Shown: positions 1 to 41,368 of the stretch, piece by piece
Numbering within the stretch: position 1 is the first letter of the stretch
Layout of the letters: each line of letters starts with the position of its first letter
Source of the DNA: a virus
Taxonomy: Duplodnaviria; Heunggongvirae; Uroviricota; Caudoviricetes
IMG/VR virus record: IMGVR_UViG_2671180984_000033
Length of the DNA: 41,368 bases
Strand: one strand, 5' to 3'
Notes under the pieces: generated by a model
What the model was told of the DNA's origin: nothing
Databases searched by the model: none
Seen by the model: the letters and a program-made list of their open reading frames with translations, nothing else
Translations under genes and position numbers: made by a program

Positions 1-270
<270 letters not shown>

Positions 271-3458: not shown

Positions 3459-3481
3459 GAAGAAAATCCCTGATTAGAAAG

Positions 3482-4213: not shown

Positions 4214-4510
4214 TCACAATATCCCCTCTAAATTTTTGCTATCCAGTACTACCACGGTAAAGCCTAGCTTTCGCAGACGTTCATGCTCGCGCAACTGGTC
4301 AGGCCGTGGTGGCTTGCCGGGAGATTTACATTCAACGAAAACGAGACGGCCGCCGGGTAGCAGAACAATGCGATCTGGTACCGAGCGGCGACCAGGTGAT
4401 ATGAACTTAAAGGCGACCCCACCAGCCTTTTTCACTTCGGCGACGAGATGCTTCTCGATTAGGTTTTCACGTTCATAGGACATCTGAATCCCACTCTTCA
4501 AAAAGCACAT
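4214..4510 (-). CDS. VRR-NUC domain nuclease
   Basis: 98-aa ORF with the D...E.K-type core (VVLDSKN, FVECKSPGK) typical of phage VRR-NUC proteins. Confidence 0.65.
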   Translation of the reverse strand: MCFLKSGIQMSYERENLIEKHLVAEVKKAGGVAFKFISPGRRSVPDRIVLLPGGRLVFVECKSPGKPPRPDQLREHERLRKLGFTVVVLDSKNLEGIL

Positions 4511-4772
4511 TCAATTCCAGTTTCTCTGCCAACGCGTTTTCTGCACGTGCGCCGGCAGAGTACTCCCACTCTTTGAGCATATAAATCGTATCGGCACAGC
4601 GAAGCATTGCGAGGCAGATGTCCATGTACTGAGCCTGTGTCAAACTATTGGGTAAAGTTGCGGGGTTAAGCACAACATATCCCTTGTCCGTTAGCCTCTT
4701 TGCTGCGGAATGAAAGGCCGGGCGGTTAAATTGCTCGTAACCGCTCATTGGCCCGGCAACGTAAACGATCAT
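4473..4772 (-). CDS. DUF4406 / nucleoside 2-deoxyribosyltransferase-like protein
   Basis: 99 aa, N-terminal MIVYVAGPMSG motif as recalled for this family; overlaps neighbours in an operon. Confidence 0.45.
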   Translation of the reverse strand: MIVYVAGPMSGYEQFNRPAFHSAAKRLTDKGYVVLNPATLPNSLTQAQYMDICLAMLRCADTIYMLKEWEYSAGARAENALAEKLELNVLFEEWDSDVL

Positions 4773-4984
4773 TCTTCGACCGCCTTACGCTTTTCACGCA
4801 TATTCTGCATCAGGCAAAAATCAGATCTGCGTTCACTCCATTCCTGATTCAGTTCGTGATGTGATTCGCGGTTGGCTTTTGCCCAGACCTCCGCTGCCCG
4901 GTCATATTCGCCGGATTGTTCAAGTCGCAAAGCTTCCCTTGCAGCCCTGTAATAAAGTGGATTGTCCCGGTATTTAAATGACAT
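4769..4984 (-). CDS. Hypothetical small phage protein
   Basis: 71-aa ORF tightly packed between the polymerase and DUF4406-like genes. Confidence 0.4.
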   Translation of the reverse strand: MSFKYRDNPLYYRAAREALRLEQSGEYDRAAEVWAKANRESHHELNQEWSERRSDFCLMQNMREKRKAVEE

Positions 4985-4989
4985 AGGAG

Positions 4990-7053
4990 TTAATCCTTAC
5001 GGTAGTGGTACGCCTCAAAACCGCCAGCGTTCAGTGGGATATCGGGCGCCCATTCGGGGTTAGTGGAGAGAAGTGCGGAAAGCGCTTTATCGTTGAAATC
5101 TTCTGTGTCAGGTGCTTCGGTGATCACCTCGTCGTGTACCGTCAGCACAATGCTGTAACCGGCATCTTCGATAAGCGGCATGTTTCCGGCCAGAATGTCG
5201 CGGGCGGCCGCCTGGGTGATGTTCTCCACCAGCTTTCCGCCGTAGGTTTTGAGTCGTTGCCATTTACGCGAATAAGAGTTAACCCCCATGTAGGTGATAT
5301 TCCCTTTTTCGATAACCGGAGACGGGTAGCATACAGCGCGTCCGGATGGTAGCTGTATGCGCAGCCACGCGCCATCGCGGCGGATTTTAAGATAACCGCA
5401 ATACAATGTTTTTTGCGGTGTGGCGATTGCAGTGCGGACGGTGCGCTCCAGTTCGTACCAGAAATCACAGGTCGCGGGATGCGCCCGGCGCCAGAGACGT
5501 TTAAGTGAGTCGCAGGCGATAAATACCCGTTCAGAAAGCCCGTAGGTTGACTTGCGTTTAACCGATTCGTCGTACCAGCTTTTCGCCTCGCGGATAACAT
5601 CGCGGGGAATGTTTGGTAGTGCGGCGTTCGCCAGCTCGTCGAGATCGAGACCGTAAACCAGTGCAAAAGTGATGAAGGCCGACACACCACCACCATAACC
5701 CAGACCGAGTTCCATGACTTTACCGATCTGACGCATGTGTTTATCAACATCATCTGGTGCAATATCGAAAGCTTTTGCATACGCCAGTTTATATAAGTCC
5801 GGACCCGTTCCGGCGTCGTACTCTCTGAATGCATTCAGTTTCCATTCTTCTCCTGCCAGCCATGCCAGCATACGGCCTTCAATGTTCGACAAGTCACTTA
5901 CCACCAGTTTTTTGCCTGTTGGCGCGATAATGCAGCCACGTAACGCTGAACTGGTTAGTTCCATGATATTGTCAAACAGCAGGTCTGCACATCCGGCTTT
6001 CAGTGCTTCGATGCCTTCGTCTATTTGTTCCTGTTTTAGTGAAGGGCGGGGAAGATTCTGGGGCTGGAATAGCCGTCCGGCCCAACGACCGGTACGTGAC
6101 GCCCCGCAGAACTGTAGCGTACCGCGTAAGCGCCCGTCGTGGCTTACGCCTTTCATCAGTGCCTTGTATTTACTGGTGCTGGTAGTACTGGCCTGCAGTC
6201 GGATAGCCAGCAGTTCTTTCACGGCAGATGGTAAATCGGGGTCGGCAATACGACGTTCCAGAGTACTGCGTTGCATGTCTGGTAGCTCCACACCGTAGGA
6301 TTCAACAATGTGCTTAATCAACGCGTCTCGTTGTGTGGCTGCCTGCACTTCGCCATCAGTCATTTCCTGTGTACGCTTTGCCAGGCGCTTTTGCTCCTGG
6401 TCTACCGCTTCGATCGCAGCGCGCGCGAGTTGCATGTCCATGCAGACGCCCCGGTCGTTGATCTGCTGATCACGATGCCAGAGCGCCAGCTCTGTCCCCT
6501 GATAATTCCACTTCGGCAGACGTTTATAGACTTCGCGCATTGCCTCGATATCCAGTCCGGCGTAAGCAACAAAGCGCCGCCATTCTTCCGGGTGGGTTTT
6601 GCTGGTGGCACGGCGCAGTTTGCTGTTTTTCGGGCGGGGCTTACAGAACAGCTGGATCAGCGCTTTACCTTCTTTGTCCTTCGCTTTGTCTTGCGGGACG
6701 CCGAGTATTTCGCAGAGTTCCCCCAGAGACCCCGGGAGACCGTGCGCCAGCGCCTGCACCATTGTGTCGCGCCAACGTTCGACTGGCGGTGCCAGGCGCG
6801 GCATTGCATAACGCAGGACGGTGCGGTCGAAGTGAGAGTTATGAAAATAAAGCAGGGTTTCAGGGTCTGCGATTGCTTCGTATAAGCCGTGTGGAATACC
6901 ACCACCGGCAGTGATATCCCACACGTTTACTGGCCCGTCGTTGATAGCCCATGCGAAAAGCATCACTTCAACGCCTTCGGCATACGCATGGGTACCGTTC
7001 GTAATAGGGATTTCGCAATAGGTTTCCAGGTCGCCCCATAGTATATTGGACAT
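4990..7053 (-). CDS. Family A DNA polymerase (phage polA-like)
   Basis: 687 aa; contains LTVHDEV (motif C-like) and an N-terminal exonuclease-like region. Confidence 0.8.
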
Positions 7054-7114
7054 AAAATATCCTCATATGGTATATGGTTAAATGCTAGATATCATGAATT
7101 AAAGGAGACAACTA

Positions 7115-7804
7115 ATGACTGTGGGTAATAAGAGACAGCCTAATGGATTACCTGAATATTATTGTCACCGTGGTAACGACATAAAAGATGCGATAGTTCG
7201 GGATTTTATTATTCAGCCTGTTGCACACCTGAAACTTATTACTGGACAAACTAAAACCAGTTATTCCGGTTATCCGTTAACCGATCAGTACTATTGTTTT
7301 TCATTTAAAAAACGCTCTGATGAAAATTGTACAGGGGCTTTTTTCTGTGGTAGAGATGTTGCAAAGGATTTCATTCGGCGTATCGGTTGTACAGAGCTGC
7401 CGTTATTTAATCCTATGAAATCGGATACCAGTGCAGCAATAGAACGTTCCGGTTCTGGCTCAGGTAGTTCTGGTATTACTGTCAAGCCAAATGCTGACAA
7501 AAAGCTATTTATAGACGCAGCTCGTCTGTTAATGACGCTGTGGGATTCAACAAGTAAGGGACAAACCCCACTGGCGTCGGTTCTTAATGAAGCAATTTCT
7601 GGTGGTATAGATAAACCTCCAGAAATTAGACATGTAGTGGCGGTTAATACAATGTTGGGTAACACAAAAAATACTTTAACTGGTTTGCTGGATAAAGCAA
7701 GAGCGAAGTATCCTGATGTGTTATTCAGAGATTTTGATTTCACGCCTCTTAACGAGATTGTAAAACGTTCAAAATCATATAATAAGCATCCCCCTTGTTA
7801 TTGA
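7115..7804 (+). CDS. Two-domain Cys-rich protein of unknown function (accessory gene)
   Basis: 229 aa; AAGGAG Shine-Dalgarno 8 nt before the ATG; N-terminal domain with CH...C...C...C, a SGSGSGSSG linker, then a C-terminal domain; opposite strand to the replication operon. Confidence 0.5.
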   Translation: MTVGNKRQPNGLPEYYCHRGNDIKDAIVRDFIIQPVAHLKLITGQTKTSYSGYPLTDQYYCFSFKKRSDENCTGAFFCGRDVAKDFIRRIGCTELPLFNPMKSDTSAAIERSGSGSGSSGITVKPNADKKLFIDAARLLMTLWDSTSKGQTPLASVLNEAISGGIDKPPEIRHVVAVNTMLGNTKNTLTGLLDKARAKYPDVLFRDFDFTPLNEIVKRSKSYNKHPPCY

Positions 7805-8469
7805 GTATCAGACACTGTATTGGTAGGAAGGCCTATCATTTCATTTAATGTCTCTCGATGTACTGCTGGTGCTAAAGGGACTGGCGGTGCGTCTGTTGGA
7901 AGCAGTTCTTTAGCTTCGGGCCATACATCCAGTAATTGTTTTACTGTCCGAACTTTATTTAGAGCCGCGCTGACGTTCTGTATGATTTCGGTTTCATCAC
8001 TTTTAATTTGTGTGTAGAGAGCATCAAAGCTATAAAACTCCGTTACCAGAGGATCTTCGCCAAGTAGAGTAAATTCTGCAGGTGTTATTTTATTAATATG
8101 CTCGGGGGCTCCTGATTCATAACCTCTGTAGTTGCCATTGAAATAAATGTTTGCTCTGGCTCCAGCCAGATTGAGATATATGCAGCAATCTTTTCGAATT
8201 AAAGAACTATTGTTTTTTAATGCTTCGGGGACTTTTGATACCAGTGTTTCTATTTTTTTTATATTTTTTAATATTTCAGCTTCTTTCTCTACGCCCCCGA
8301 TAGCTGCAAGCCGAACACGTTCGGCCCATTCAACACGAGCAGCTCGTAGTGCTGATTTACGTTTGGGGATACCCGCTTTCTCAAGTGCGTTATTGATGAT
8401 TTGAGTTTTAAGGTGATTAGTTAATACGGGCTGTGACATTATTCTTTCCCTCATGAGATACCCCAGCAC
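7798..8469 (-). CDS. Hypothetical phage protein
   Basis: ORF in the leftward operon; track start is GTG, and an internal ATG (MSQPV..., near 8439) has a better AGGGAAAG Shine-Dalgarno. Confidence 0.5.
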   Translation of the reverse strand: MLGYLMRERIMSQPVLTNHLKTQIINNALEKAGIPKRKSALRAARVEWAERVRLAAIGGVEKEAEILKNIKKIETLVSKVPEALKNNSSLIRKDCCIYLNLAGARANIYFNGNYRGYESGAPEHINKITPAEFTLLGEDPLVTEFYSFDALYTQIKSDETEIIQNVSAALNKVRTVKQLLDVWPEAKELLPTDAPPVPLAPAVHRETLNEMIGLPTNTVSDTQ

Positions 8470-8490
8470 GTAGCTGGGGGATGAATATTT

Positions 8491-9039
8491 TTAAATCAGT
8501 GCTTCAGCATCAGCACCTTCGCTGATATCGTCGAAATCGTCAGCGCTTGCCACTCCGCCGCCAGCGAATGCATCGCCGTCTCGCAGGAACTGGACTCCGC
8601 CGAGTGAGGCATTAATGCGTTTACCGAAATTATTGTCCTGTGCCCAGATATCGATAACGGCGTTTACATAGCACCCTGCATAGGGACGTCCATCAGCCTG
8701 AATTAGTGGCGAACGATCGCGATCAAGAACAGCTGGGCGCGCTTTGTTAGCAGCGTTCAGGAAGAAATTGCCGGGAAAGCCTTCATACTCTGCTTTTTCA
8801 TCACCATCATGCAGGCACAGATTGAGTTTTTTCTCCAGCTGGTTATAAATGGACTCCCACTTCTCCCCCCATTTTTCCTTCGCTACCTGCTTCATAGCTT
8901 TACGGATTTCTTCCAGTTGTGGGTGTTTGGGAGACATTAAAAATACTGCGGAGAAACGCGGATCGCCTTCGCCGTTTACAGTTTTAGCTTCAAACAGAGA
9001 CGGGAAGGCCAGACGAACATTGTTCAGCTTCAGTTTCAT
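8491..9039 (-). CDS. DUF2815-like phage single-strand DNA-binding protein
   Basis: 182 aa with an acidic C-terminal tail (DDFDDISEGADAEALI); sits beside a DUF2800-like gene as in known phage replication modules. Confidence 0.55.
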   Translation of the reverse strand: MKLKLNNVRLAFPSLFEAKTVNGEGDPRFSAVFLMSPKHPQLEEIRKAMKQVAKEKWGEKWESIYNQLEKKLNLCLHDGDEKAEYEGFPGNFFLNAANKARPAVLDRDRSPLIQADGRPYAGCYVNAVIDIWAQDNNFGKRINASLGGVQFLRDGDAFAGGGVASADDFDDISEGADAEALI

Positions 9040-9054
9040 GGGGATTTCCTTAAA

Positions 9055-10356
9055 TCAGATGAGGTCTGCGGTTAGCGTATCGTCGGATACGTCGTCGAAA
9101 TCATTTACAGGGTTGATATTGAGTGCGGGGCGTGGGTCTGACTCGGGAACGACGGTGGGTTTACCATCAGCTCGTGTTATCAGTGCCTCGACTTTTGACC
9201 AACGGCGCGGACTGGCCTTTTTGATAAGTTTTTCGGCTTTTGTGGGACTAATAAGTTTAAAGTCGAATACTTCTTCAGTTTTGTACCTGAACTGGTCCTT
9301 CAGAAGGGCGCGAGCTGCCTCTTCGTCACTCCAGGCCCGGTTACCTTGTTTTTCTGTTACCAGTTTAAACCCCGGTACCGGATGTCCGGCATTGAGTTCA
9401 TTGTGAACCCGGTCCCGTACTGCCTTTAGCCAGGATTCAATAAAGTCGGCCTGGCTATAGATCTCTGCAAGCTGCTCAATGGTTAACAGAGGTACACGTG
9501 CGCTGGCATTGGTGATTATTTCGCTGACAGGCTTTGTCAGATCTTCAAAATCGCTGGCCGCTGTTTGTAAATGCTGCATTTTCTGGGCAGTGCAAATAGC
9601 TTTTGCTTTACAGAAGCGGCACTGTTTTTCTCCAGGTATGAAGTTTTCCAGAGGTAGTGTCTCAATGACTTCGCATTCAGCAATATTGAGAACAAGGATC
9701 GCACTGGTTGCGGCCTTCTGTGCCCGTTCACCGAAAGACTGAAGTTCCTGTACGGTTAACGACCATTCTGAAACGTGGTTGAGCCTTGGCTGGTGAATAA
9801 ATAATCTTACAGTCTCAAAGTCATACAGCATGCTGAATTGTTCGAGCGCACCCAGAGCATACAGTTGTAGTTGCTCATTTTGTTCTGCATCAATGCGGAC
9901 ACCTTTGCCATATTTCAGGTCGTGGATTTGTAATTCGCTACCAGCAATGATTATTCCGTCGGCAGTTCCGAAAGATTCTTCCACACCCGTTATATGTGAG
10001 AAATCAACACGTTGTTCAACCAATAGTTCATTATTCTGTGCAAGAGTCCAGACCGTATCAACATACCGGCCAACGGCTTCGACCATTTCATCATCCACCT
10101 GTGGGCCAGATGTATCATCAGGATTTTCGCGAAGGGGGTATGAGCCGAGAAACATAGAAACATTGCATCCGGCGTAGTGTTCCGGGTGGCTTTGCCTGTT
10201 TCGTAGAACTTTTTCAGCAAGCGCGTGCGCTGCAGTGCCCTCGATTGCAAAAGTTGTTTCTTTATCCGGTTGTGTGGCCTCCAGCGCCAGACTTCCTGGG
10301 CAGCGCATCCATCGATGCGCTGATGATGGAGAAAGTTGTGCATGAACGTCTGGCAT
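9055..10356 (-). CDS. DUF2800-like PD-(D/E)XK nuclease (Cas4-like fold)
   Basis: 433 aa; N-terminal [15 protein letters not shown] signature; cysteine cluster near the C-terminus. Confidence 0.6.
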
Positions 10357-10358
10357 GA

Positions 10359-11261
10359 TTAACCCTCCAGTGCTTTTTCAGCCAGGGTGATTACTTCAGC
10401 GAGATTTTCATCCGTTACTTCACCAAGTTTCCTGGCTCCCTGTTTTTCCAGAATTGCAATAGCTTCTGCCCGGTAACCCCCTTTTGCTAACTGGAGGATC
10501 AACCCTTCAGCTTGTTTGCGTAGTGCCGCGAAATCAATTGTATGGTCATCTTTGGCGTCATTATTCTGGCTGGAATTTGCTGCGTCTCTGCGTGCAAATT
10601 CTTCCTGCAGCTGAAGGTACTCAACACGGTTGATCTCGATATGGCCTTTTTTCAGCATCTCGTTCAACTTGCGTAAGGTGTGGAGTTCACTGGCTGCTGT
10701 GCCGGATACATTTTTGACGTAAAACGGCCCCGTGCGTTCTCCATCCTTGTTACTGGCCTTTTTCGGCTTAACTTCATCACGCCCATCCGCAGGTGCATCA
10801 AGTAGCTGCTCGGCAAAAGCACGTCGCTCGCCGATGGTTGGCAGGTCGTCCCAGAACTTAAGGATGTTACGGGACAGGTCCAGGAGAGCAGGTTTAAGCA
10901 GCGCCCTGGCTCGTTTGACGCCCTGCAATGCGCTGTCGAGAGCATCAATCTGAACAACTCGTTTATCGCCTTCAGCATCACGGTAGGCAACAGCACGTTG
11001 CAGCATGTCTTCTGTGATAGGGGTGGCTACCGGGTAGAAACCAGCCAGTGCGATAACGTCGCTGAACTCCAGATCATCCAGTGTCATTGCCGCTGACATA
11101 TTTTCAGTTTCAGTTGCTGTATCCCGACATTCCTGCACTCGTGAAATCGTGTCAGGATGCATAACAATGCCTGATGCCATTGTGCGGATAAGACGTTCAA
11201 GCAGCGCATTATGTTGTGCCAGAAGTTGATTATTAAGTTCTAGACTGGTTTCTAAACTCAT
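10359..11261 (-). CDS. Hypothetical phage early protein
   Basis: 300-aa ORF in the leftward operon, acidic and helix-rich. Confidence 0.45.
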
Positions 11262-11440
11262 ACTGTGGTCCTCGCTACAAGGAGAATGAAAGTGATGATC
11301 AGACCGAGCGCAGTGGCAACGGCCAGACCGGTCATCAAATCGAAGTTTTTACGGCGATAACGGAGAACATCGCGCCCCGTCAGTCGATGGATGTGTTCAG
11401 GTTTCATCGGTTGTATTCCTTTTTTCATATCGGGGAGCAC
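11258..11440 (-). CDS. Small membrane protein (first gene of the leftward early operon)
   Basis: 60 aa, Arg-rich N-terminal half and one C-terminal hydrophobic helix (LAVATALGLIITFILLV); 4-nt overlap with the next gene. Confidence 0.4.
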   Translation of the reverse strand: MLPDMKKGIQPMKPEHIHRLTGRDVLRYRRKNFDLMTGLAVATALGLIITFILLVARTTV

Positions 11441-11465
11441 GCTGTTGCGAGTGCGCTTTCAGACA

Positions 11466-11492
11466 TAAAAAAGCCCGTCACGTGAGGCGGGC
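11466..11492 (-). terminator. Intrinsic terminator-like hairpin on the minus strand, upstream of the leftward operon
   Basis: Minus-strand GCCCGCC-TCACGTGA-CGGGC followed by TTTTTT. Confidence 0.45.
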
Positions 11493-11631
11493 AAAGACTA
11501 CACACAGCAATTACATGGATATCATCGAGTGCCTGCTTTTAACCACATCAGGCGAGGTGGTTCTCCTTGTACCCCTACAGTGAGAAATCGTCTAATATCT
11601 CTTCACCCCTACAGTTTGAGAGAGATTAGAT

Positions 11632-12201
11632 ATGTCTGAAGAAAAAGGAATTCTTTCCCGGATAACTGAATCGTTATCCGGCGTGGGAGGAGCAATTAAA
11701 AGCGCGGTTGGAGCAGCAAGAGAGATTCAGAATCTGACTGTCGACTATGCAGTTAAAGAGAAGACGCACATCTTACTCGATAAGCTAATGGATGTTCAGA
11801 TGCAGCAAATGTCGCTTCAGGAGCTGCTGATTGCGGCTAAGGAGAAAATTGTTGAACTGGAAAATGAGAAAGTAAAGCAAGAGAACTGGGCCGCTGAAGC
11901 GGCGAGCTATGAACTTTACCAGCCTATGCGGGGTACTCTGGTCTATCGCAGCAAGCTTTCTGCAGATGCTGACCAATCTCCGGTTTATATTTGTCCCAAT
12001 TGCTACGAGCAAAAGAGAAAATCTATATTGCAAGCGGAAGGTCTGGTTACTAAGCCAGGCCTTGGGCGAGCCGTTAATATGGTTTGTTCGTACTGTAGGG
12101 CTTCCTATCTGTTCAACCGAAATGCTTTAGAAGCCCGACTGCCTTCTGAAGATGAAAATCCGGGGAAGGCAATCACGGATTACGATCCTTACAACCAGTA
12201 A
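11632..12201 (+). CDS. Coiled-coil / zinc-ribbon protein of unknown function (accessory gene)
   Basis: 189 aa; ICPNCY...VCSYCRAS pair of CxxC motifs; convergent with the repressor. Confidence 0.5.
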   Translation: MSEEKGILSRITESLSGVGGAIKSAVGAAREIQNLTVDYAVKEKTHILLDKLMDVQMQQMSLQELLIAAKEKIVELENEKVKQENWAAEAASYELYQPMRGTLVYRSKLSADADQSPVYICPNCYEQKRKSILQAEGLVTKPGLGRAVNMVCSYCRASYLFNRNALEARLPSEDENPGKAITDYDPYNQ

Positions 12202-12251
12202 TTTCTTTAAGCATGGGTACCCTTCCGGCCACCCAGAGTTAAAGGAACTAA

Positions 12252-12278
12252 GCGCCCCATCGTCGGGGCGTTTCAACT
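12252..12278 (+). terminator. Putative intrinsic terminator after the zinc-ribbon gene
   Basis: CGCCCC-ATCGTC-GGGGCG hairpin followed by TTTCAACTT. Confidence 0.45.
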
Positions 12279-12520
12279 TGCGTGACTTATCAGTTCGTCG
12301 CGGTGTTGTCCTCTACGCTTACCGTACGCATACGGACTCGGCGCTTACCTCGATCCCATCGGGTGCCATTTCATTTTGCCAGGAGTACTGCGGCTTACCT
12401 GTCACGCGGTTCAGTTTGTTAAAGAGCTGGTATTAAAAAACGCATTAATTATGCGATATCGTATTTATATGCATTATGGGATTTTGTGTCAATACGAAAA
12501 TGAATTATTTTGCAAATAAG

Positions 12521-12547
12521 AAAACCGCCCTTGTGGAGAGCGGTTTG
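12521..12547 (-). terminator. Intrinsic terminator downstream of the repressor gene
   Basis: Minus strand AAACCGC-TCTCCACAAGG-GCGGTTT followed by TCTTATTT. Confidence 0.55.
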
Positions 12548-12576
12548 ATCAGAAGTAAGTTATCAGACTGTAAAGG

Positions 12577-13251
12577 TTAGTACATGCGTAGCGCGGATTT
12601 GGCGATCCCCGCCACGTAATGGATTTTTTCAATGTTTTCGCGTGGTACTCTGACTGGTGGATGATCTTCATTTACAGACATTAGATGGAACAGGCCATCG
12701 CGTTCGAACAAGAAGGTTTTAACCATGACCTCACCGTCCCGGGTAACCACAAGTACTTCATCACCAGGAGTGTAGTCGTGGTTGGGTTCGACGATTACGA
12801 ACTCACCCTCTTTGATTCTAGGCATCATTGAATCACCAACACATTTCAGGGCGTATGCATCTTCATCCTTTGTCGGCCAGTATATGAAACCATCACTGCT
12901 ACCTACTGAATATTGGGTGTCGCTCCAAAGTCCTCCAACGCCTAGCTGAGTGTTTCCCAAAACAGGTACTTTATTAAACCTAAGAGAAATATACGTTTTT
13001 ATACCTGTCGCGTCCTCTTTCTCCATTTCTTGAAGGCTCCTTTCTGCCAGGTCTATTGGTGACACGTGGAAGTAGTCGGCGATCTGCTTTAACGTTGCGT
13101 ATTTCGGATCTTTCACCTCTCCTGATACCAGCCTGTGTAGCGTTGGTTGGTTCAGTTGTAACCGACGTGCCAGCTCAGTTATCGAGCTTATCTTGGCTTT
13201 GTCCATCAGGTACTTGATGTTTTGAGAAAGGATATCGGTAGTATCAATCAT
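12577..13251 (-). CDS. cI-type repressor (HTH plus S24 LexA-like peptidase domain)
   Basis: N-terminal HTH (ITELARRLQLNQPTLHRLVSG) and C-terminal GDSM serine-protease motif; divergent from a cro-like gene. Confidence 0.85.
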   Translation of the reverse strand: MIDTTDILSQNIKYLMDKAKISSITELARRLQLNQPTLHRLVSGEVKDPKYATLKQIADYFHVSPIDLAERSLQEMEKEDATGIKTYISLRFNKVPVLGNTQLGVGGLWSDTQYSVGSSDGFIYWPTKDEDAYALKCVGDSMMPRIKEGEFVIVEPNHDYTPGDEVLVVTRDGEVMVKTFLFERDGLFHLMSVNEDHPPVRVPRENIEKIHYVAGIAKSALRMY

Positions 13252-13392
13252 TTGGATTCATCCATGTTGTATACAGGGACGGTGATTATGCGTTATCGGA
13301 TATTTTAATCCAGGATGATATAGAATTGCCGTATTGCTGAATAATCCGTTTTCGTATAAATTTGCGCTATAGACGAAAGTGGAGACTTAAAT
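13252..13392. promoter_or_regulatory. Divergent immunity promoter/operator region between the repressor and cro-like genes
   Basis: 141-bp AT-rich intergenic region with GGAT/ATCC half-site repeats, TTGCTG and TATAAA hexamers, and a GGAG Shine-Dalgarno before cro. Confidence 0.55.
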
Positions 13393-13593
13393 ATGTCCGG
13401 ACTAACACCACAAGAGATGGTCAAAAGCTTGATTGATTCAGGGTATACCCAAAACCAAATTGCCGAAATTGCAGGCGTGAAGCAGTCTTCTATTAGTCGG
13501 CTTCTCACCGGGGTTCATTCTGACCCTCGCTTTTCTACAGTACGTGCGATAGAAAAGCTTTTTCAGGAAGTGACAGCTAGACAAAAGGCGTAA
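13393..13593 (+). CDS. Cro-like HTH regulator
   Basis: 66 aa with HTH (QNQIAEIAGVKQSSISRL); divergent from the repressor. Confidence 0.7.
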   Translation: MSGLTPQEMVKSLIDSGYTQNQIAEIAGVKQSSISRLLTGVHSDPRFSTVRAIEKLFQEVTARQKA

Positions 13594-13596
13594 CCC

Positions 13597-15858
13597 ATGT
13601 CTGATAACAAACCATGGGGAGCTACGCCCGATGAGTGGTTCCACTTCGATCTGGTGTTGGGGATGACAGACAGGCTTTTACCTGTGGTGTCCAATCCCTG
13701 TGCAGAACTGTCGCCTAATAGCAAGCTGTCTCATAATTTCGGCAAAACCCCCAGTCGCTACAATGGCCAACGTAAGGTTGTTGGTATCCCCGACTGGGCT
13801 AACTATGTTGTTACGGAAAACGATTTTGCCCGGTGGTCGAACGAACCCGATTACGGTATTTGCGTTCGTACTGGCGACGGGGTGGTGGCTCTGGACTGCG
13901 ATATCAATGACGCCGGGATGCAGGAGATCGTACGCAATATTATCCTGTCATGCCTGGGGGAACTTCCGCCACGTCGCTGGCGGGCTGACAGTCATAAATG
14001 CCTGTACCTGATTGCTGTTGATGGCGACTACCGTAAACGTGGTCACCGCCTGGAAGGCGAAAACAAACAAATAGAGCTGCTCGCTAAGGGCCAGCAGTTT
14101 GTGGCTTGTGGTACCCATCCGGCAGGCGAACGTATTCAGTGGGACTGCGGTCTGCCCGGCGAACCTCTGAAAATTACATCTGAACAGCTCGAAAGCCTGT
14201 GGCAGCGTCTGGCGGATAACTTACCCGTGAAAGACAGCTATACCGCAGGTGCAGGACGTCAGCGTGATCTTTCCTGTGTTGATCCTTCCGCGACAGATGA
14301 TGTCGCCGACTGGCTTGACGCGAACGGGTGGACTCTGTCAGTCAGCTCTGATGGTTCCCGCAATCTGAAACCGTTTCGGGATGAGTCAGAATACAGCAAC
14401 GGTTGCAGCGAAACATCCATTAAGTATTTCCCAAAAGGGACGGGGGGATTTGAACAGGGACATTTTAAAAGCATGCACAACACCGATGCGGGGCTTACTG
14501 ATGCCGACTGGCTGGAAGGCTACGGCTATACGCAATCCCTGTTCGAAGATCTCACGGTGGTTGAAGATGGCGATAAGCCTGAATTTACCGATATTAATAC
14601 AGATATGACAGCTCATTTTCTGGAACGCTTTATCTACGTCATCGAGGGTGACCAGGTATGTGATCTTAGCCGACCGCCATATCAGTGCATGATGGATATG
14701 AAGTCGTTCAAAAACCTGATGGCGCCTTACCAGTTCCCGCCAGAAGGGAAAGGGCAACCAACTCCCGCAACCAAACGGTGGATAGAGCATCGGCATAAGA
14801 AGATTGCTGAGACGACAGGCTATAAGCCCGGTGCGGGACGTATTATCGAGCGTTTCGACGGGCGGTTTGAGATAAACGAATTTTATATGCCTGAGCATCC
14901 ACGTACAGCGGATACAAGTAAGGTGTCCACGTTCCTTAATCATATGGCGTATCTGGTACCTGATGCCTGGCAGCGCGAGTTTTTCATCGCCCGTCTGGGG
15001 TGGATGGTTCAGCGTCCGGAGCGTCGATGCCCGATTTCTATTCTGCATGTGGCTACCGCACATGGTACGGGCAGAGGATGGGTCAGCCAGTTAATGGAGC
15101 GCGTGCTTGGTCCGTGGAACTGTGCTCGTACTCGCATGAAGATCCTGTGCGATAACCAGTTCCATGACTATCTGTACAATACGCTTCTATGCACCATTGA
15201 CGAGGTGCGCGAAAATGATAAGCGGTATGAGGTGAACGATAAGATCCGTGACGTGCTGACAGAACCACGGTTTGAAGTGAACCGCAAATATGGCAGCAAA
15301 AAAACGATGGATATATACACCGGCTTTCTGTTCTACACCAACCACTTTGATGCGCTGGCGCTGCCAGAGGAAGACCGACGTATCGCTGTGCTGGGGGGCC
15401 CTGACTTCGCCGCAACTGAAGAGCATTACGCCAGCCTGTACGGTGCGCTAAGCGACAGCGACTTTATCGCCCAGGTGTACTGGTATCTGATGGGCGTTGA
15501 CCTGTCTCGCTTTAACTGGCAGCGCGCCCCCGAGACGAAAGAACGCCTTCTGATGATTGAAAGCAATAAGAGCGATGTGGAGGCTGCTCTTATTGAAATC
15601 CTGGATAATCCGCCTGTGCCAGCAATGACTTATCAACAAATTGTTAACGCAATACTGGCAGAAGCAGGAATGGATGTAGAAATTAACCAGAAGCATATTA
15701 CTCGCATTTTGAAAGAAAGAACAAAGCGGGAACCCGTACGCGTAAAAATTGACGGGTTTGTATATAGGATTTGGATTCTTGTAAAAAATAACGATTTCAG
15801 CAACGAAGAATTGCGCGAAATATATAAATCTTGCGAAATTTTGCAATCTGGATTGTAA
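13597..15858 (+). CDS. Putative replication primase (primase-polymerase-like N-terminal domain)
   Basis: 753 aa; VVALDCDIND (DxD) and ACGTHPAG resemble archaeo-eukaryotic primase motifs; immediately followed by the inverted-repeat array. No canonical Walker A seen. Confidence 0.55.
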   Translation: MSDNKPWGATPDEWFHFDLVLGMTDRLLPVVSNPCAELSPNSKLSHNFGKTPSRYNGQRKVVGIPDWANYVVTENDFARWSNEPDYGICVRTGDGVVALDCDINDAGMQEIVRNIILSCLGELPPRRWRADSHKCLYLIAVDGDYRKRGHRLEGENKQIELLAKGQQFVACGTHPAGERIQWDCGLPGEPLKITSEQLESLWQRLADNLPVKDSYTAGAGRQRDLSCVDPSATDDVADWLDANGWTLSVSSDGSRNLKPFRDESEYSNGCSETSIKYFPKGTGGFEQGHFKSMHNTDAGLTDADWLEGYGYTQSLFEDLTVVEDGDKPEFTDINTDMTAHFLERFIYVIEGDQVCDLSRPPYQCMMDMKSFKNLMAPYQFPPEGKGQPTPATKRWIEHRHKKIAETTGYKPGAGRIIERFDGRFEINEFYMPEHPRTADTSKVSTFLNHMAYLVPDAWQREFFIARLGWMVQRPERRCPISILHVATAHGTGRGWVSQLMERVLGPWNCARTRMKILCDNQFHDYLYNTLLCTIDEVRENDKRYEVNDKIRDVLTEPRFEVNRKYGSKKTMDIYTGFLFYTNHFDALALPEEDRRIAVLGGPDFAATEEHYASLYGALSDSDFIAQVYWYLMGVDLSRFNWQRAPETKERLLMIESNKSDVEAALIEILDNPPVPAMTYQQIVNAILAEAGMDVEINQKHITRILKERTKREPVRVKIDGFVYRIWILVKNNDFSNEELREIYKSCEILQSGL

Positions 15859-34575: not shown

Positions 34576-35376
34576 ATGCAACCAAAAACACAAAAATCCA
34601 GGGATATTAAAACAGTTAATCGGGTTGTTATGACCCTGCGACCTTACTTGTGTTTTGAGCAGGATATTACCGTTTTTGTTAAAGAACGAACTGCTAAGCA
34701 GATCGAAGAGATTCAGGACCCGGGGCTAAAATGCTCTGCATTATCCTTTTTCTACTTCACCCTAGGAGATATCGAGCGCGGTAAATATTATGCGGAAGAA
34801 ATGTTGAGATATCTACCTACAGATACTGTCGCATGGAGGAACTATAATCTGGGTTTGTTCTGGTGCAGTGGAGCAGTCGAGGCTTTAAATGTGGCTAAGC
34901 GTGGATTCGATGCTACCAGTAGCCCAATTTTGGCTTGTGACGCATATTACTATTCATCTTCAGTTGCGGATTTTTCATGCTTTCTGGAAATGCGCGAGTT
35001 CCTTTTGCGTACAGAAATGTATGAGAAATTCATAGAGCAAGACCGGGAGTCAGATATGTTGCGGAGTCTGGAGTATGCAAATATAGCCAGTCGGTACAAC
35101 AAAGAGGATGTGATTAAAAATATCTCAGCTTTGATGTATGAAAAACTGGATTTGGTGCAAAAACTGAACTCTGCAGTCCGTCTGCTTGATGTTACTGAGG
35201 ACGGTGAAGATCCAGAGCTTATTTTTGAAATGTATGTAAACAATGCTGATGCAGCAACATGCGCAGCCATGAATGTTGAGCTTATTTCAGCTCGCGTGCG
35301 TTCTGGATTAACTGACTGGAGTGTAGGAGGCGTTTATGTCGCTCATAATAAAGAGGACATGTTGCAATGCCAGTAA
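34576..35376 (+). CDS. Hypothetical protein, first gene of an overlapping pair (accessory cassette)
   Basis: 266 aa, helical, with no tail-protein character; preceded by an 89-bp gap; low GC. Confidence 0.5.
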   Translation: MQPKTQKSRDIKTVNRVVMTLRPYLCFEQDITVFVKERTAKQIEEIQDPGLKCSALSFFYFTLGDIERGKYYAEEMLRYLPTDTVAWRNYNLGLFWCSGAVEALNVAKRGFDATSSPILACDAYYYSSSVADFSCFLEMREFLLRTEMYEKFIEQDRESDMLRSLEYANIASRYNKEDVIKNISALMYEKLDLVQKLNSAVRLLDVTEDGEDPELIFEMYVNNADAATCAAMNVELISARVRSGLTDWSVGGVYVAHNKEDMLQCQ

Positions 35377-35747
35377 CACCAAGGGATTTTCTTGCCATGG
35401 CTTCTGATGCACCTGTTTCTGATGAAATGCTTAATCGAAATGCTGTTAGCAGGGCGTATTATTCCAGCTATTTACATGTTAATGAAAAAGTGACTGCTTT
35501 GAATTTGCCGCTTCCCAAAGTAAATGGCGGTGTACACGCCCGTTTGATCAGTGGTCTGAATAATGGGGCGTACAGTGACTTAAATAACGGAATAAGTCAT
35601 GATGCGCAGCTTGAAATTGCAGGGTTACTTAGTTTGTCAAAGCAGCTCAGAACAAAGGCTGATTATAAGTTACACATGACTATCAATAACACGGATAAAG
35701 CCACAGCGATAGCGAATGCTAAAGCGGTCTTTGAATTGCTTCCATAG
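35367..35747 (+). CDS. Hypothetical protein, second gene of the overlapping pair
   Basis: 126 aa; 10-nt overlap with the upstream ORF; followed by a strong terminator. Confidence 0.5.
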   Translation: MPVTPRDFLAMASDAPVSDEMLNRNAVSRAYYSSYLHVNEKVTALNLPLPKVNGGVHARLISGLNNGAYSDLNNGISHDAQLEIAGLLSLSKQLRTKADYKLHMTINNTDKATAIANAKAVFELLP

Positions 35748-35816: not shown

Positions 35817-36569
35817 ATGCCCGTTTCTTTAAGCGCTCAACTTGGTAGCAAAGAACAGGCCGATGTAAGACTTGCTGGTTCTGTCATGTCGACGCTGCGC
35901 GTTTCTATGCCTGGCATCGTCCAGTCATTTGATCCGGACACGGTAACGGTAGTTGTTCAACCAGCGATTAAAGGCTATGAGCCGGACTCAAATGGAATCA
36001 ACCAGTCGACGATATTACCCTTGCTGGTGGATGTGCCAGTGGTATTCCCGCGCGGCGGAGGATGCACGCTAACGTTCCCAGTTAAAGCCGGTGATGAATG
36101 TTTGGTGATTTTTGCCGATCGTTGTATTGATTTCTGGTGGCAGAGTGGCGGGATACAGGAGTCGGTCGATGATCGAATGCATGATTTATCGGATGCGTTT
36201 TGTATTGTCGGTCCCCAGTCGCAGGCAAGGAAGATTAGCGGTATTAATACCAGTGCCACACAGTTGCGTAGTGACGACGGCAGCACCTATTTTGAGCTTA
36301 ATCCTGATACCCGGAAAATTAAAATTGTCGCTCCGGGGGGGCTTGATGTGGTTGCCCCCCTGGCTGATTTTTCTGAGAAAGTAACCATTCATGGCCTGTT
36401 AACCTGGATGGGGGGCATGGTGGGGTCTGTTGTTTCTGGTGTGGCTTCAAAAATCACTGGTGCTGTTGAGTTTTTGGGTAGCGTGAAGGCTAACGGCAAG
36501 CCAATCGATGATACGCACACTCATGGTGGTGTTCAGCGCGGTGGAAGCAATACCGACGGAGTAAACTGA
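35817..36569 (+). CDS. Baseplate spike protein (gpV / Mu gp45-like)
   Basis: 250 aa; C-terminal THTHGG HxH motif typical of spike apex metal sites. Confidence 0.6.
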   Translation: MPVSLSAQLGSKEQADVRLAGSVMSTLRVSMPGIVQSFDPDTVTVVVQPAIKGYEPDSNGINQSTILPLLVDVPVVFPRGGGCTLTFPVKAGDECLVIFADRCIDFWWQSGGIQESVDDRMHDLSDAFCIVGPQSQARKISGINTSATQLRSDDGSTYFELNPDTRKIKIVAPGGLDVVAPLADFSEKVTIHGLLTWMGGMVGSVVSGVASKITGAVEFLGSVKANGKPIDDTHTHGGVQRGGSNTDGVN

Positions 36570-36922
36570 TGCGATACAGACGTGAAGACGCCGATGGCGA
36601 TTACACCTTTGGCAGCGGTGATGACACCTGGCTGATTAACTCACCGGAGGCCGTGGCGCAGGCGGTAAAAACGCGATTTGAATTGTGGTATGGGCAATGG
36701 TTTCTCGACACCACCGAAGGGACCCCGTGGATCCAGTCTGTGCTCGGTAAGCAGAAGCCGGAAACCTACAACCTGGCGATCCGTAAGCGCATCCTCGAAA
36801 CGCGGGGCGTTAAATCAATCCTCTCTTTCAATACGACGGTGGATACCACGACCCGACGTGTCATGTTTTCCGCTGAAATCGACACTCTCTATGGAATAAC
36901 GACTGTTAAATCGGAGGCGTAA
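36569..36922 (+). CDS. Baseplate protein (gpW / gp25-like)
   Basis: 117-aa ORF in the conserved position after the spike. Confidence 0.55.
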   Translation: MRYRREDADGDYTFGSGDDTWLINSPEAVAQAVKTRFELWYGQWFLDTTEGTPWIQSVLGKQKPETYNLAIRKRILETRGVKSILSFNTTVDTTTRRVMFSAEIDTLYGITTVKSEA

Positions 36923-38121
36923 TGGCTCTGAACCTTGATTCTCTCGGTTTATCTGCAAAGGTAACCGCGGAGGGGATCAGTGCGCCTGATTATCAGACGA
37001 TACTCAGCACCCTGATTAGCTATTTTCAGCAGATTTATGGCAGTGATGCCTACCTCGAACCGGATAGTAAAGACGGCCAGATGGTGGCTCTGATGGCGCT
37101 GGCGATTCATGATGCCAATAATACTGCGATAACTGTCTACAACTGTTTTTCACCGGCAACCGGCTATGGGGCCGCACTGACCAGTAACGTGAAAATAAAT
37201 GGTATTTCACGTAAAGGCGCGACGAATTCTACGGTTGATTTGCTTCTTACAGGAACTGCCGGAACAACCATCATTAATGGCAGCGTGAAAGACAGTAATA
37301 GTGTGATATGGCGTTTGCCTGCTTCAGTGGTGGTCGGCGTGGATGGTACAGTGATGGCGACCGCAACATGTTCCGTCAGTGGTGCAGTGGCGGCGCTGGC
37401 TGGAACTATCACTGAAATTAATACGCCAACCCGTGGCTGGGTTTCGGTAACTAATCCTGCTGCGGCTACTGTTGGCTCTCCGGCAGAAACTGATGCGGAG
37501 TTACGTATCCGCCAGTCGCAAAGTGTTGCGTTGCCATCAATAACCCCATTTGAAGCACTGGATGGTGCTGTTTCTAATGTTACCGGTGTAACCCGCCACA
37601 AACTCTATGAAAACGATACTGGTTCGGAGGACGGTAACGGGTTACCGCCACACTCTGTTGCTGTAGTTGTGGATGGCGGTGATGTGATGGATATTGCTCA
37701 GGCTATCAGAGGGAATAAAGGCCAGGGGACAGCCACTCACGGTACAACATCCGTTACGGTTCCGGATAAATACGGCAATCCCCATGTAATCAAATTCTCG
37801 CGTTCCAGTGATGTGCCTGTTTATGCCCGGATTAAATTAAAAGTTTTTACGGGTTATACCTCACAGATAGGGCAGCAGATCCAGCAGGCTATTTCCGACT
37901 ATATCAATAGTCTGATGATTGGTGATTCGGTCCTTTTAAGTCGCATTTACTCACCGGCGAATCTTGGCGTGGTGAGTGGCGGGAATGCACGCTATTACGA
38001 TATTCAGGAACTGACGATTGGGAAATCTCCGGGGGCTTTGTCGTCATCAAACATTGATATCAGATACAACGAATCTGCGTCCTGTACCCCGGAAAATATC
38101 GTTATAACGGTGGAGTCATGA
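36922..38121 (+). CDS. Baseplate J-like protein
   Basis: 399-aa ORF following the gpW-like gene. Confidence 0.6.
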   Translation: MALNLDSLGLSAKVTAEGISAPDYQTILSTLISYFQQIYGSDAYLEPDSKDGQMVALMALAIHDANNTAITVYNCFSPATGYGAALTSNVKINGISRKGATNSTVDLLLTGTAGTTIINGSVKDSNSVIWRLPASVVVGVDGTVMATATCSVSGAVAALAGTITEINTPTRGWVSVTNPAAATVGSPAETDAELRIRQSQSVALPSITPFEALDGAVSNVTGVTRHKLYENDTGSEDGNGLPPHSVAVVVDGGDVMDIAQAIRGNKGQGTATHGTTSVTVPDKYGNPHVIKFSRSSDVPVYARIKLKVFTGYTSQIGQQIQQAISDYINSLMIGDSVLLSRIYSPANLGVVSGGNARYYDIQELTIGKSPGALSSSNIDIRYNESASCTPENIVITVES

Positions 38122-38798
38122 GCAAATACACCGAACTAATCACGAACTACCACGCCACCAAACCTAAATTTCTTGCACATGTTGATCTGATGACCCGGCC
38201 GCTTATTGATGTTGCGGCGGCCACCAGAGGGCTGATTACTGCATTTGATATTGACTCTGCGGTTGGTGTGCAACTTGACATTCTGGGATTGTGGATCGGA
38301 CGTAGCCGTGTTGTCAGCCAGCCTATCTCAGGTGTTTATTTCAGCTGGGATACCGACGGGCTTGGATATGATCAGGGTGTATGGCAGGGACCATACGATC
38401 CTGATTCCGGATACATGTACCTCAGCGATGAAACTTATCGTGTCATCCTTAAAGCGAAGATTGCGATTAATAACTGGGACGGACGGAATGATTCGCTTCC
38501 GGCAATTCTTGACGCGGCAACAGCAGGATCCGGGCTGCGAATGCAGATAGTCGATAACCAGGACATGACGATATCGGTCTGGGTCTTTCCTGATACTGAT
38601 ATTTCAGATGTATCGCGTGAGTTAATTGCTGCAATTAAACAGGGATATCTCACAGTAAAAGCCGCTGGGGTGTGGGCGGGTGGCATTGAAACGCCTTCGG
38701 TGGAAACCCCATCGGAAGGTTCAAAATTTTTTGGTTTTGATATGGATAACGAATTTATCAGTGGTTTTGATGTAGGGGCATGGGGAGTATTACTCTGA
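38118..38798 (+). CDS. Tail protein (gpI-like)
   Basis: 226-aa ORF between the J-like gene and the tail fibre. Confidence 0.5.
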
Positions 38799-39646
38799 TG
38801 GCAAAAAATGACTTTAAAGCATTCGCAACGGGTAAAAATGCCAATGTTATGTCGCAGGAGGAATGGGAAGCGTTGCCTGCGCTTTTATCCGGATTTACAG
38901 CAGGGAAAGCCTCCAGTGCGCAAGTCAATAAGGTTATTCGGCAGGCCAGCTTTATTGCTGCAGCTCTGGCCCAGTTTGTAAGTGATAAAACGCAACGGGA
39001 TGTGCTTGATAATGGTGATCTGCCCGGTTTTGTTGAATTGCTGGGATCGGGGTTTGCTGTTGAATACCTGAGCCGCAAGAATCCGTTTGGCGATATCAAA
39101 TCGGATGGCACGGTGAAAATGGCTCTCGAAAACCTTGGTTTAGGAGAAGGCTCAGCATTGCCTGTTGGCGTACCTGTTCCGTGGCCCTCAGCCACTCCGC
39201 CAACAGGCTGGCTAAAATGCAACGGAGCAGCTTTTTCTGCTGAAGAATACCCGGAACTGGCAAAGGCTTACCCGACAAATAAATTGCCTGATTTACGTGG
39301 TGAGTTTATTCGTGGCTGGGATGACGGACGTGGTATGGATACGGGGAGGGCAATATTATCAGCTCAGGGCGATGCCATACGTAATATCTATGGTGAGTTC
39401 AGAACTGTAAACACTGAAAATTATTCAATATGGGAAACAGTAGGCTCGTTTAAGGGGGCCATAGTGCCATTGAGTCCCTCTACAAACAATAGTTATTTCT
39501 CCTTAACCAGAAGTATGGTGACAGAAAGAGCAGACGGCGCTGTTTACCCAAAAGTGATTGGCCTTGATGCTTCAAGAATTGTTCCAACTGCAAACGAAAA
39601 CCGTCCTCGTAACATTGCCTTTAATTATATCGTGAGGGCTGCCTGA
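38780..39646 (+). CDS. Tail fibre protein (constant N-terminal part plus currently expressed variable C-terminus)
   Basis: C-terminal [17 protein letters not shown] motif characteristic of Mu/P1/e14-type fibre tips; contains a crossover-site-like sequence at its LGLGE codons. Confidence 0.75.
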
Positions 39647-40251
39647 TGAATAAAGCGGTATTAAATAACGAACTCATTGCTATAAAAGCGGGAGACATTA
39701 CCATTTATAATTATGATGGTGAAACGCGGGAATATATTTCCACATCAACTGAATATCTTGCTGTGGGTGTCGGTATCCCGGCATGTTCCTGTTTAGATGC
39801 TCCTGGCTCATATAAAGCTGGTTATGCAATCTGCCGTTCTGCAGATTTTAACTCATGGGAATATGTGCCAGACCATCGCGGTGAAGTTGTCTATAACACC
39901 GAAACGGGAGAATCAAAAGAAATCACAGCTCCGGGTGATTACCCTGAAAATACAACCACTATCGTCCCGTTAACGCCATACGATAAATGGGATGGTGAGA
40001 AATGGGTGACAGATACTGAGGCACAGCATAATGCCGCAGTAGACGCGGCAGAAGCACAGCGCCAGTCACTGATTGATGCAGCAATGGCTTCCATCAGTCT
40101 GATTCAGCTGAAATTACAGGCCAGACGTAAACTGACGCAGGCAGAAACAACCCGACTAAACGCTGTGCTGGATTACATTGACGCGGTGATGGCAACGGAT
40201 ACCAGCACCGCGCCGGTGGTTATCTGGCCAGTTCCTCCTGAGACGGTTTAA
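39646..40251 (+). CDS. Tail fibre assembly protein
   Basis: 201-aa ORF immediately after the fibre gene. Confidence 0.7.
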   Translation: MNKAVLNNELIAIKAGDITIYNYDGETREYISTSTEYLAVGVGIPACSCLDAPGSYKAGYAICRSADFNSWEYVPDHRGEVVYNTETGESKEITAPGDYPENTTTIVPLTPYDKWDGEKWVTDTEAQHNAAVDAAEAQRQSLIDAAMASISLIQLKLQARRKLTQAETTRLNAVLDYIDAVMATDTSTAPVVIWPVPPETV

Positions 40252-40441
40252 TCTCAATCAGAATGGGTTCGCCCTTCTCGTTAACAGATATTTCCATTCC
40301 TTCAGGGATTTCAGATGCAGTAAAAAACCAGTTATCTTCTGGTAATTCAACAGCCCCGGTCACGTCATGAAGACCGGGGATTACTTCAGTCAAAGTAACA
40401 GGATTAAACAGGCGCACAATAAACCCTCCAGGAAAAAGCAT
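40220..40441 (-). CDS. Alternative tail fibre assembly protein in inverted orientation (short)
   Basis: 73-aa minus-strand ORF downstream of the alternative fibre C-terminus, inside the invertible segment. Confidence 0.45.
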   Translation of the reverse strand: MLFPGGFIVRLFNPVTLTEVIPGLHDVTGAVELPEDNWFFTASEIPEGMEISVNEKGEPILIEIKPSQEELAR

Positions 40442-40787
40442 TTATTGATGGTGTTCCGTCGTACATCTGGCAGCGGACATAAAAACCGGTATTAGTGACC
40501 TGGTCATCCACGATCATTGAAACGTGAACGTTATTAGATGTGCCCCCATAATCCGTTCCTATTCTTTCCGCTATGCTGATAAAACGTGAAAGCTTAGGTA
40601 GCGCAATAGGATAAACGACTTTAGCCAGTCCATTATTATTAGAACCACCCGTCCCAAAGACTTCTATTGCACCATCTGACCAGCGTATCCATGCACCATT
40701 GGCATTAGCTCCTCGCTGAATGACATATCTGGCTTCTCCCAAACCAACGTTTATGAAAATGCAGAAATAACGAGCAAATGGCATCAT
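40404..40787 (-). CDS. Alternative tail fibre C-terminal variable segment (inverted, currently not fused)
   Basis: Minus-strand ORF carrying GLGE at the crossover-like site, matching ENLGLGE in the plus-strand fibre; residues upstream of the site are probably not a real N-terminus. Confidence 0.55.
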   Translation of the reverse strand: MMPFARYFCIFINVGLGEARYVIQRGANANGAWIRWSDGAIEVFGTGGSNNNGLAKVVYPIALPKLSRFISIAERIGTDYGGTSNNVHVSMIVDDQVTNTGFYVRCQMYDGTPSINAFSWRVYCAPV

Positions 40788-40813
40788 TCCTGCTTTTGTC
40801 AGGGAGATCTACC

Positions 40814-41368
40814 ATGCTTATTGGCTATGTACGTGTGTCAACAAATGACCAGAACACAGATCTACAACGTAATGCGCTGAACTGTGCAGGATGCGAGCTG
40901 ATTTTTGAAGACAAGATAAGCGGTACAAAGTCCGAAAGGCCGGGGCTGAAAAAACTGCTCAGGACATTATCGGCAGGTGACACTCTGGTTGTCTGGAAGC
41001 TGGATCGGCTGGGGCGTAGTATGCGGCATCTGGTCATTCTGGTTGAGGAGTTGCGCGAACGTGGCGTTAATTTTCGCAGCCTGACGGATGCTATTGATAC
41101 CAGCACACCGATGGGGCGTTTTTTCTTTCATGTGATGGGGGCCCTGGCTGAAATGGAACGAGAACTGATTGTTGAACGAACAAAAGCTGGACTGGAGGCT
41201 GCTCGCGCACAGGGACGAATTGGTGGACGTCGTCCCAAACTTACACCAGAACAATGGGCGCAGGCCGGGCGATTAATTGCATCAGGAGTTCCTCGCCTGA
41301 AGGTAGCGATCATCTATGATGTTGGCATATCGACTTTGTATAAGAGGTTTCCGGTGGGAGATAAATGA
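40814..41368 (+). CDS. Serine DNA invertase, Gin/Pin/Hin family
   Basis: MLIGYVRVSTNDQNTDLQRNAL...LVVWKLDRLGRSM...FRSLTD closely matches Gin/Pin as I recall them; ATG 40814 has an AGGGAG Shine-Dalgarno (track start 40778 is upstream in frame). Confidence 0.9.
   Translation: MLIGYVRVSTNDQNTDLQRNALNCAGCELIFEDKISGTKSERPGLKKLLRTLSAGDTLVVWKLDRLGRSMRHLVILVEELRERGVNFRSLTDAIDTSTPMGRFFFHVMGALAEMERELIVERTKAGLEAARAQGRIGGRRPKLTPEQWAQAGRLIASGVPRLKVAIIYDVGISTLYKRFPVGDK

Follow-up and report, generated by a model that had tools for sequence, protein, structure and literature searches.

The stretch of DNA analysed here (the window), 41,368 nucleotides long and recorded as the Caudoviricetes virus IMGVR_UViG_2671180984_000033, carries at its right end a tail-fibre gene whose 3′ part lies within an invertible segment, next to the DNA invertase gene pin. 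We conclude that this arrangement is very probably a site-specific inversion switch of the Din family (Gin/Cin/Pin/Hin), of the type of the P segment of the Escherichia coli element e14, in the prophage of a temperate myovirus. The evidence comes from a pair of inverted crossover sites, the continuity of the fibre reading frame after inversion, the identity of the invertase, the occurrence of the same DNA in either orientation in public genomes, and selection acting on the two arms of the segment. A switch of this kind is textbook biology, and RefSeq already lists its components as pinE and tfaE.

Crossover sites

The left crossover site (pixL-like, 39123–39148) lies inside the fibre gene and reads CTCTCGAAAACC-TT-GGTTTAGGAGAA. 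The right site (pixR-like, 40734–40759) reads TTCTCCCAAACC-AA-CGTTTATGAAAA, and its reverse complement is TTTTCATAAACG-TT-GGTTTGGGAGAA. Compared in the same sense, the two sites have 20 of 26 positions in common, including the central dinucleotide TT, and they lie in inverted orientation. The initial annotation had singled out this pair as crossover-like, and our searches bore it out. The pair ranked first among the inverted repeats of the region searched (38700–41368), and the two sites were the only matches in the 41,368 bases to the 26-bp Din-type consensus TTCTCNNAAACCNNGGTTTNNGAGAA with up to three mismatches (no match in 100 shuffles and none expected by chance). The inner arm common to both sites, TTGGTTTRGGAGAAG, gave the same two-site result in the whole window and in the shuffles. 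Both site arms encode GLGE.

As expected of Din sites, both are 26 bp long and imperfectly dyad symmetric, with the AAACC-NN-GGTTT core. Comparison with the actual sites of Mu, P1 and e14 (the last read from the MG1655 record) revealed that the right site is the same as that of e14 without any difference, and that the left site departs from its e14 counterpart at one base, with A here and G in e14 at position 39143. Since Mu gix and P1 cixL also carry this A, and since the marker has crossed over in contig L023 (see below), the idea that it disables the left site was rejected. A multi-inversion system with extra crossover sites (Min/shufflon-like) was likewise rejected, because the window holds two sites only.

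Fibre gene and reading frame after inversion

The constant 5′ part of the fibre gene (Sc, residues 1–113), delimited by the open reading frame (ORF) and the RefSeq coding sequence, occupies 38798–39136 on the plus strand, outside the segment. It continues into Sv (39137–39646, plus strand), the C-terminal part predicted to be expressed at present (residues 114–282), which matches the Pfam Collar domain (E = 2e-15), so that the full fibre in the present orientation has 282 aa (38798–39646). Behind it stands the gene of Tfa (39646–40251, plus strand), the putative tail-fibre assembly chaperone for Sv, with 201 aa, a Pfam Caudo_TAP match (E = 3.5e-28) and the RefSeq name tfaE. The alternative C-terminal part, Sv′, is on the minus strand (40404–40745) and comprises 113 aa counted from GLGE. 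It is placed in the gp53-like C-terminal fold family, with a weak Pfam match to Gp53-like_C (E = 5.7e-4, below the curated cutoff) and a match to PHROG 2557 (E = 5.5e-15). In the present orientation its ORF reaches upstream to an ATG at 40787 (40404–40787, minus strand) and has no constant part. A small Tfa-like gene follows Sv′ on the same strand. The earlier proposal of a fibre C-terminus with an accessory gene on each strand thus holds.

With both central dinucleotides included, the invertible segment measures 1,613 bp (39135–40747), in line with the roughly 1.6 kb first suggested. Inverting it in silico joined residues 1–113 in frame to GLGEARYVIQRG... and gave an uninterrupted fibre of 226 aa, with the small ORF directly 3′ of it; the frame continuity on which the initial annotation had staked its prediction is therefore present. 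The central TT of the left site falls within codon 113 (CTT, L113), and G114–E117 are encoded by the inner half-site of whichever arm is joined. Each of the in-frame alternative 3′ parts is accordingly followed by its own accessory gene, that of the 201-aa Tfa behind the 282-aa fibre and that of a 65-aa Tfa-like protein behind the 226-aa fibre. According to Pfam the two tips have unrelated folds, Collar and gp53-like C, and it is therefore likely that they recognize different receptors.

Both orientations in public genomes

The initial annotation had suggested checking both junctions by PCR. As its in silico equivalent, we compared the window with public assemblies and contigs. Two contigs found through the window's own Tfa represent the two states. 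L020 agrees with the window as it stands (0/5223 mismatches). L023, from a public E. coli assembly, agrees once reverse-complemented with the window after in silico inversion (36131–41368; 0/5238 mismatches). In L023 the marker base of the inner half-sites (A left, G right) has swapped sides, with the outer halves unmoved, and the exchange is therefore confined to TTGGTTT (39135–39141) around the central dinucleotide.

The in silico inverted stretch of 2.67 kb also aligned collinearly and in one piece to complete E. coli genomes, to that of DX6 at 100% coverage. Where the cassette was found at 80% coverage or more in one place of a complete E. coli genome, 13 records had the inverted form and 12 the as-is form. 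Strains 97-3250 and 00_3230 have an orthologue of the prophage, 94% identical and at the same attachment site, with the segment in opposite orientations; after inversion of one copy at the centres of the sites, no mismatch remained in 8,375 positions. In chicken isolates that are clonal and equal in genome length, the cassette lies in a P2-like prophage, again in opposite orientations and otherwise without a difference (0/8133). The predicted 226-aa chimera is present verbatim on 340 public contigs and the 282-aa fibre of the present orientation on 180, and the distal ORF predicted to arise by inversion (183 aa) is also present in public annotations. Both orientations of identical DNA exist, with the exchange at the centre of the sites. 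Differences at this place between assemblies of the same prophage are explained by the segment, as are the 127-aa, 183-aa and 226-aa "hypothetical" proteins in databases.

The invertase and a putative enhancer

The pin gene (40814–41368, plus strand) encodes a serine DNA invertase of 184 aa. Its start is the ATG at 40814 and not position 40778, and the window ends exactly at its stop codon. The initial annotation had likened the product to Gin and Pin, and the likeness is close: Pin is 95.1% identical to PinE of E. coli K-12 e14, approximately 81% to P1 Cin and 76.6% to Mu Gin, and it matches the Gin structure 3uj3 over residues 1–181 (E = 6e-93). It has the composition of a small serine recombinase, namely an N-terminal catalytic domain (Pfam Resolvase, E = 9e-52) with the active-site Ser9 in YVRVSTNDQ, and a C-terminal helix-turn-helix (HTH_7); H106 and M114 are wild type. 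Given the identity to PinE, the single-nucleotide difference in the sites and the PGAP names pinE and tfaE, the region is an orthologue of the e14 P region, and it displays the testable defining features of Din systems, as had been supposed from its likeness to the Mu G and e14 P segments.

Near the start of pin, a stretch at 40832–40903 (nt 19–90 of the gene) is homologous to the annotated recombinational (Fis) enhancer of P1 cin. The alignment is gapless, with 70 of 72 positions identical to pinE, 55 of 72 to cin and 54 of 72 to gin. It contains two G-N13-C cores, whose centres at 40842 and 40891 lie 95 and 144 bp away from that of the right site, and the native spacing of the Hin enhancer is about 100 bp (PMC3798978). 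By this homology the stretch may act as a Fis enhancer.

Proposed mechanism

We propose that Pin dimers would bind both 26-bp sites and that an enhancer occupied by Fis, within the first ~90 nt of pin, would join the sites in an invertasome, as expected from the homologous Hin, Gin and Cin systems. The Pin tetramer would then make cuts, staggered by 2 nt, at the central TT of each site, and a 180-degree rotation followed by religation would invert 39135–40747. The constant part is expected to be transcribed from upstream together with the baseplate genes, and with the fibre operon read in this way only the arm adjoining residues 1–113 would be expressed. The products would be the Collar-domain fibre of 282 aa with the 201-aa Tfa in the present orientation, and the 226-aa fibre with the gp53-like tip and the 65-aa Tfa-like protein in the inverted one. 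A lysogen population would then release virions of two receptor specificities, a form of host-range bet-hedging, and the prediction is that particles of both kinds come from this prophage. For e14, experiments have demonstrated that PinE inverts the P segment and that PinQ does so in trans, and cultures hold both orientations (PMC12529663; PMC4272514).

Three observations weigh against this reading. By the G-N13-C criterion the Fis cores are 49 bp apart. The enhancer-homologous stretch also codes for the conserved catalytic N-terminus, and its conservation may be driven by the protein alone. Finally, a simple scan of 38700–41368 revealed no convincing sigma-70 promoter for pin; this promoter and terminator scan, which found fewer promoter-like sites than shuffled sequence and none upstream of pin, was itself uninformative.

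The short Tfa-like gene of the alternative arm

The small ORF behind Sv′ had been listed at 40220–40441 (minus strand) with 73 aa. Because GGAGG stands 7 nt upstream of the GTG at 40417, and because the RefSeq annotation and the homologues begin there, this GTG is most likely the start, and the gene shrinks to 40220–40417 (minus strand) and 65 aa. Its start overlaps the stop of Sv′, and its 3′ end overlaps that of tfa by 32 nt. In alignments with Tfa proteins of 128–139 aa the product covers only their N-terminal half, ending at the point where the C-terminal helical region starts. It corresponds to positions 1–66 of the 145-position PHROG 5400 profile and shows 34% identity to a 128-aa Caudo_TAP protein of Cronobacter phage JK004 over the first 61 residues of the latter. 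Neither the 65-aa nor the 73-aa form has a Pfam match, and the conserved C-terminal helical region that defines Caudo_TAP lies beyond its end; the protein therefore appears to be a relative of the Tfa N-domain only, rather than a member of Caudo_TAP.

The initial annotation had suspected that the alternate orientation is partly degenerate. On that account the segment may flip, with the inverted fibre non-functional and its partner chaperone a truncated remnant without the C-terminal Caudo_TAP domain. The restriction of the small ORF to the N-terminal half of Tfa and its missing Pfam match agree with such a remnant, as does the view that the conserved C-terminal domain of Tfa drives trimerization (PMC9608196). 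The homologues speak otherwise. All of the 92 homologue clusters, from Escherichia, Enterobacter and Salmonella and down to 63% identity, are short (43–90 aa), and the stops of five diverged copies fall within approximately four codons of each other. Among these copies pN is 0.14–0.26 and pS 0.55–0.86, with dN/dS at 0.07–0.21 where computable, and 15 positions are invariant across 36 sequences of the family. AlphaFold predicts a confident, compact, small beta-rich fold (pLDDT 87); a structural search with the protein found no match. The gene also has a good Shine-Dalgarno sequence in addition to its start overlapping the Sv′ stop, and in two P2-like prophages (L017 and L018) it stands in the chaperone slot, directly behind an expressed fibre gene of 460 aa whose product has a weak, sub-threshold match to the gp53-like tip. 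Judged by its homologues, the 65-aa gene is a conserved short gene under purifying selection and no recent wreck, which leaves a degenerate alternate arm unlikely.

According to published work, the variable N-domain of Tfa binds the fibre and its conserved C-domain brings about trimerization (PMC9608196, summarizing a study of Mu Tfa). We tentatively suggest that the 65-aa gene may encode a naturally minimal fibre chaperone or accessory protein, consisting of the variable fibre-binding N-domain without the C-domain. Should the 65-aa protein be sufficient to assemble the small gp53-like tip, the conserved Tfa domain would be dispensable for some fibres.

Possible benefit to the host

Inversion might also, or instead, serve the host, if the promoter-distal arm is made in the lysogen as a free tip that masks a receptor. 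The precedent is StfE2 of e14, which is reported to be created by inversion of the P segment and to block T2 adsorption (Kirigo et al. 2025, PMC12529663). In the window the distal arm has ATG codons of its own, at 40787 and 40784, and forms an ORF of 127 aa now and 183 aa after inversion; both forms stand verbatim in public annotations. The arm shares the leader MMPFARYFCIFINVGLGE with e14, and the leader of this minus-strand ORF (start 40784–40787), MMPFARYFCIFINV, is that of e14 stfE. However, the leader is nothing but read-through of the crossover site and the region upstream of pin, the Shine-Dalgarno spacing is poor, and promoter-like matches on the minus strand are at or below chance. 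The tip is just 24% identical to that of StfP, and the prophage looks intact from integrase to tail, so that a host-range role in the virion is the simpler reading. We regard a function for the host as slightly less probable still than a degenerate arm, and keep to a switch of virion host range.

Improbable alternatives: a frozen switch or general recombination

It might be argued that the switch is frozen in this strain and that the orientations in public genomes are old, separately inherited states, given that the exact window occurs in only one complete RefSeq genome (EH2252) and that some related prophages have a truncated invertase. However, Pin is full length, with its catalytic Ser9 and with 95% identity to the active PinE, and both sites are intact. 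Moreover, the opposite-orientation assemblies are identical at every other base over 5.2–8.4 kb, which requires a very recent inversion, and the clonal isolates of identical genome length differ in orientation only. A frozen switch is thus very improbable. That the inverted repeats recombine by the general homologous (RecA) pathway instead of through Pin can practically be dismissed, since the 15 bp of near-identity between the arms, which might suggest it, is far below the length of an efficient RecA substrate, and since the exchange point maps to 7 bp holding the central dinucleotide of a canonical Din site with the cognate invertase adjacent. The e14 segment, for its part, is locked in pinE and pinE pinQ mutants (PMC12529663).

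Comparison with known inversion systems

The closest known system is the P segment of e14, a cryptic prophage of E. coli K-12. In addition to the near-identical invertase and sites, the layout is the same: a constant fibre part, Sv and Tfa, converging Tfa′ and Sv′, and a pin gene that points away from the segment. Identity is 88.9% between the Tfa arm and TfaE and 58.7% between the Sv arm and stfE; over the final 23 residues of the constant fibre part it is 91%. The segment is 1.61 kb here and approximately 1.8 kb in e14. The second arm differs, with a gp53-like tip and a 65-aa protein here in place of the StfP tip and the 137-aa TfaP. The surroundings differ as well, since the fibre N-terminus and baseplate here are of another type (DUF2612/Wedge1 plus J/gp47), whereas e14 has P2-like ymfQ/jayE. 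Furthermore, the carrier here is apparently a complete prophage, while e14 is a remnant.

With the G segment of Mu, the window shares the Gin-type mechanism, the gene order (Sc, Sv-U, U′-Sv′, gin) and the AAACC-NN-GGTTT core. However, the G segment is about 3 kb long, has perfect repeats of 34 bp and encodes two full-length chaperones of about 175 aa, whereas the sites here are imperfect (20/26) and one chaperone has 65 aa only. The C segment of P1/P7 resembles the system in its invertase Cin and in the annotated enhancer, nt 19–90 of cin, that aligns gaplessly with pin; the inner half of P1 cixL is GGTTTAAGAGAA. It differs in that the 3′ end of cin adjoins the segment, where here it is the 5′ end of pin, and in its length of approximately 4.2 kb.

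The same cassette was found in both orientations behind a constant part of the P2 H type in P2-like elements (among them prophages of strains DG342-2 and DG341-1 and phage S164). Tfa is 100% identical there and the 65-aa gene is the same, and the homology to the window starts at the left crossover site. What differs is the invertase allele (188 aa), along with the constant fibre part and the outer half of the left site. In comparisons with P2-like, HK97-like and Klebsiella prophages, matches of the cassette also start at this site (window 39124–39132; query positions 425–436). The cassette appears to be passed as a whole between unrelated tail types, bounded by the crossover site, and its presence behind P2-type fibres illustrates the known modular exchange of fibre cassettes.

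In three related prophages the invertase gene is truncated to 267–315 bp (L003 5115–5381, L004 5115–5381, L012 4826–5140). Among relatives whose invertase is truncated, both orientations are present in DNA that is otherwise identical. This fits inversion in trans by another Pin-type enzyme of the host, and fits equally a flip that preceded the truncation. Action in trans would parallel that of PinQ on e14.

The carrier prophage

E. coli EH2252 has a prophage, integrated beside yfhH, that is 100% identical to the window and in which RefSeq names tfaE and pinE. The prophage is apparently complete, with an integrase, replication genes, a CI-like repressor and head and tail genes, and the switch is at its right end. 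Positions 470–15858 encode the integrase (TTG start), a SNF2-type helicase, a family-A DNA polymerase, a DUF2800/PD-(D/E)XK nuclease, a Prim-Pol/DUF5906 protein and the CI-like S24 repressor, which make up the replication module of a self-replicating temperate phage.

Two overlapping genes (266 and 126 aa) at 34576–35747 lie among the tail and baseplate genes, and neither product has a Pfam match. The 126-aa product matches PHROG 5176 (function unknown, E = 2e-22) and has a weak PADLOC match to HEPN_IX (E = 2e-6). In the DX6, 97-3250 and 00_3230 prophages a DUF4282 gene occupies this place instead. The position looks like a variable moron slot, possibly holding a defence or toxin pair here.

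Positions 2067–25000 of the window are 98% identical to the records vB_EcoM-611R5, 606R2 and 689R2. The first of these (L012; ON470588.1) was deposited as a "complete phage genome" and ends in the host gene yfhH (6869–7586 of L012), so that it appears to be a prophage region including host flank. Its P segment carries cassettes other than those of the window, despite the 98% identity elsewhere.

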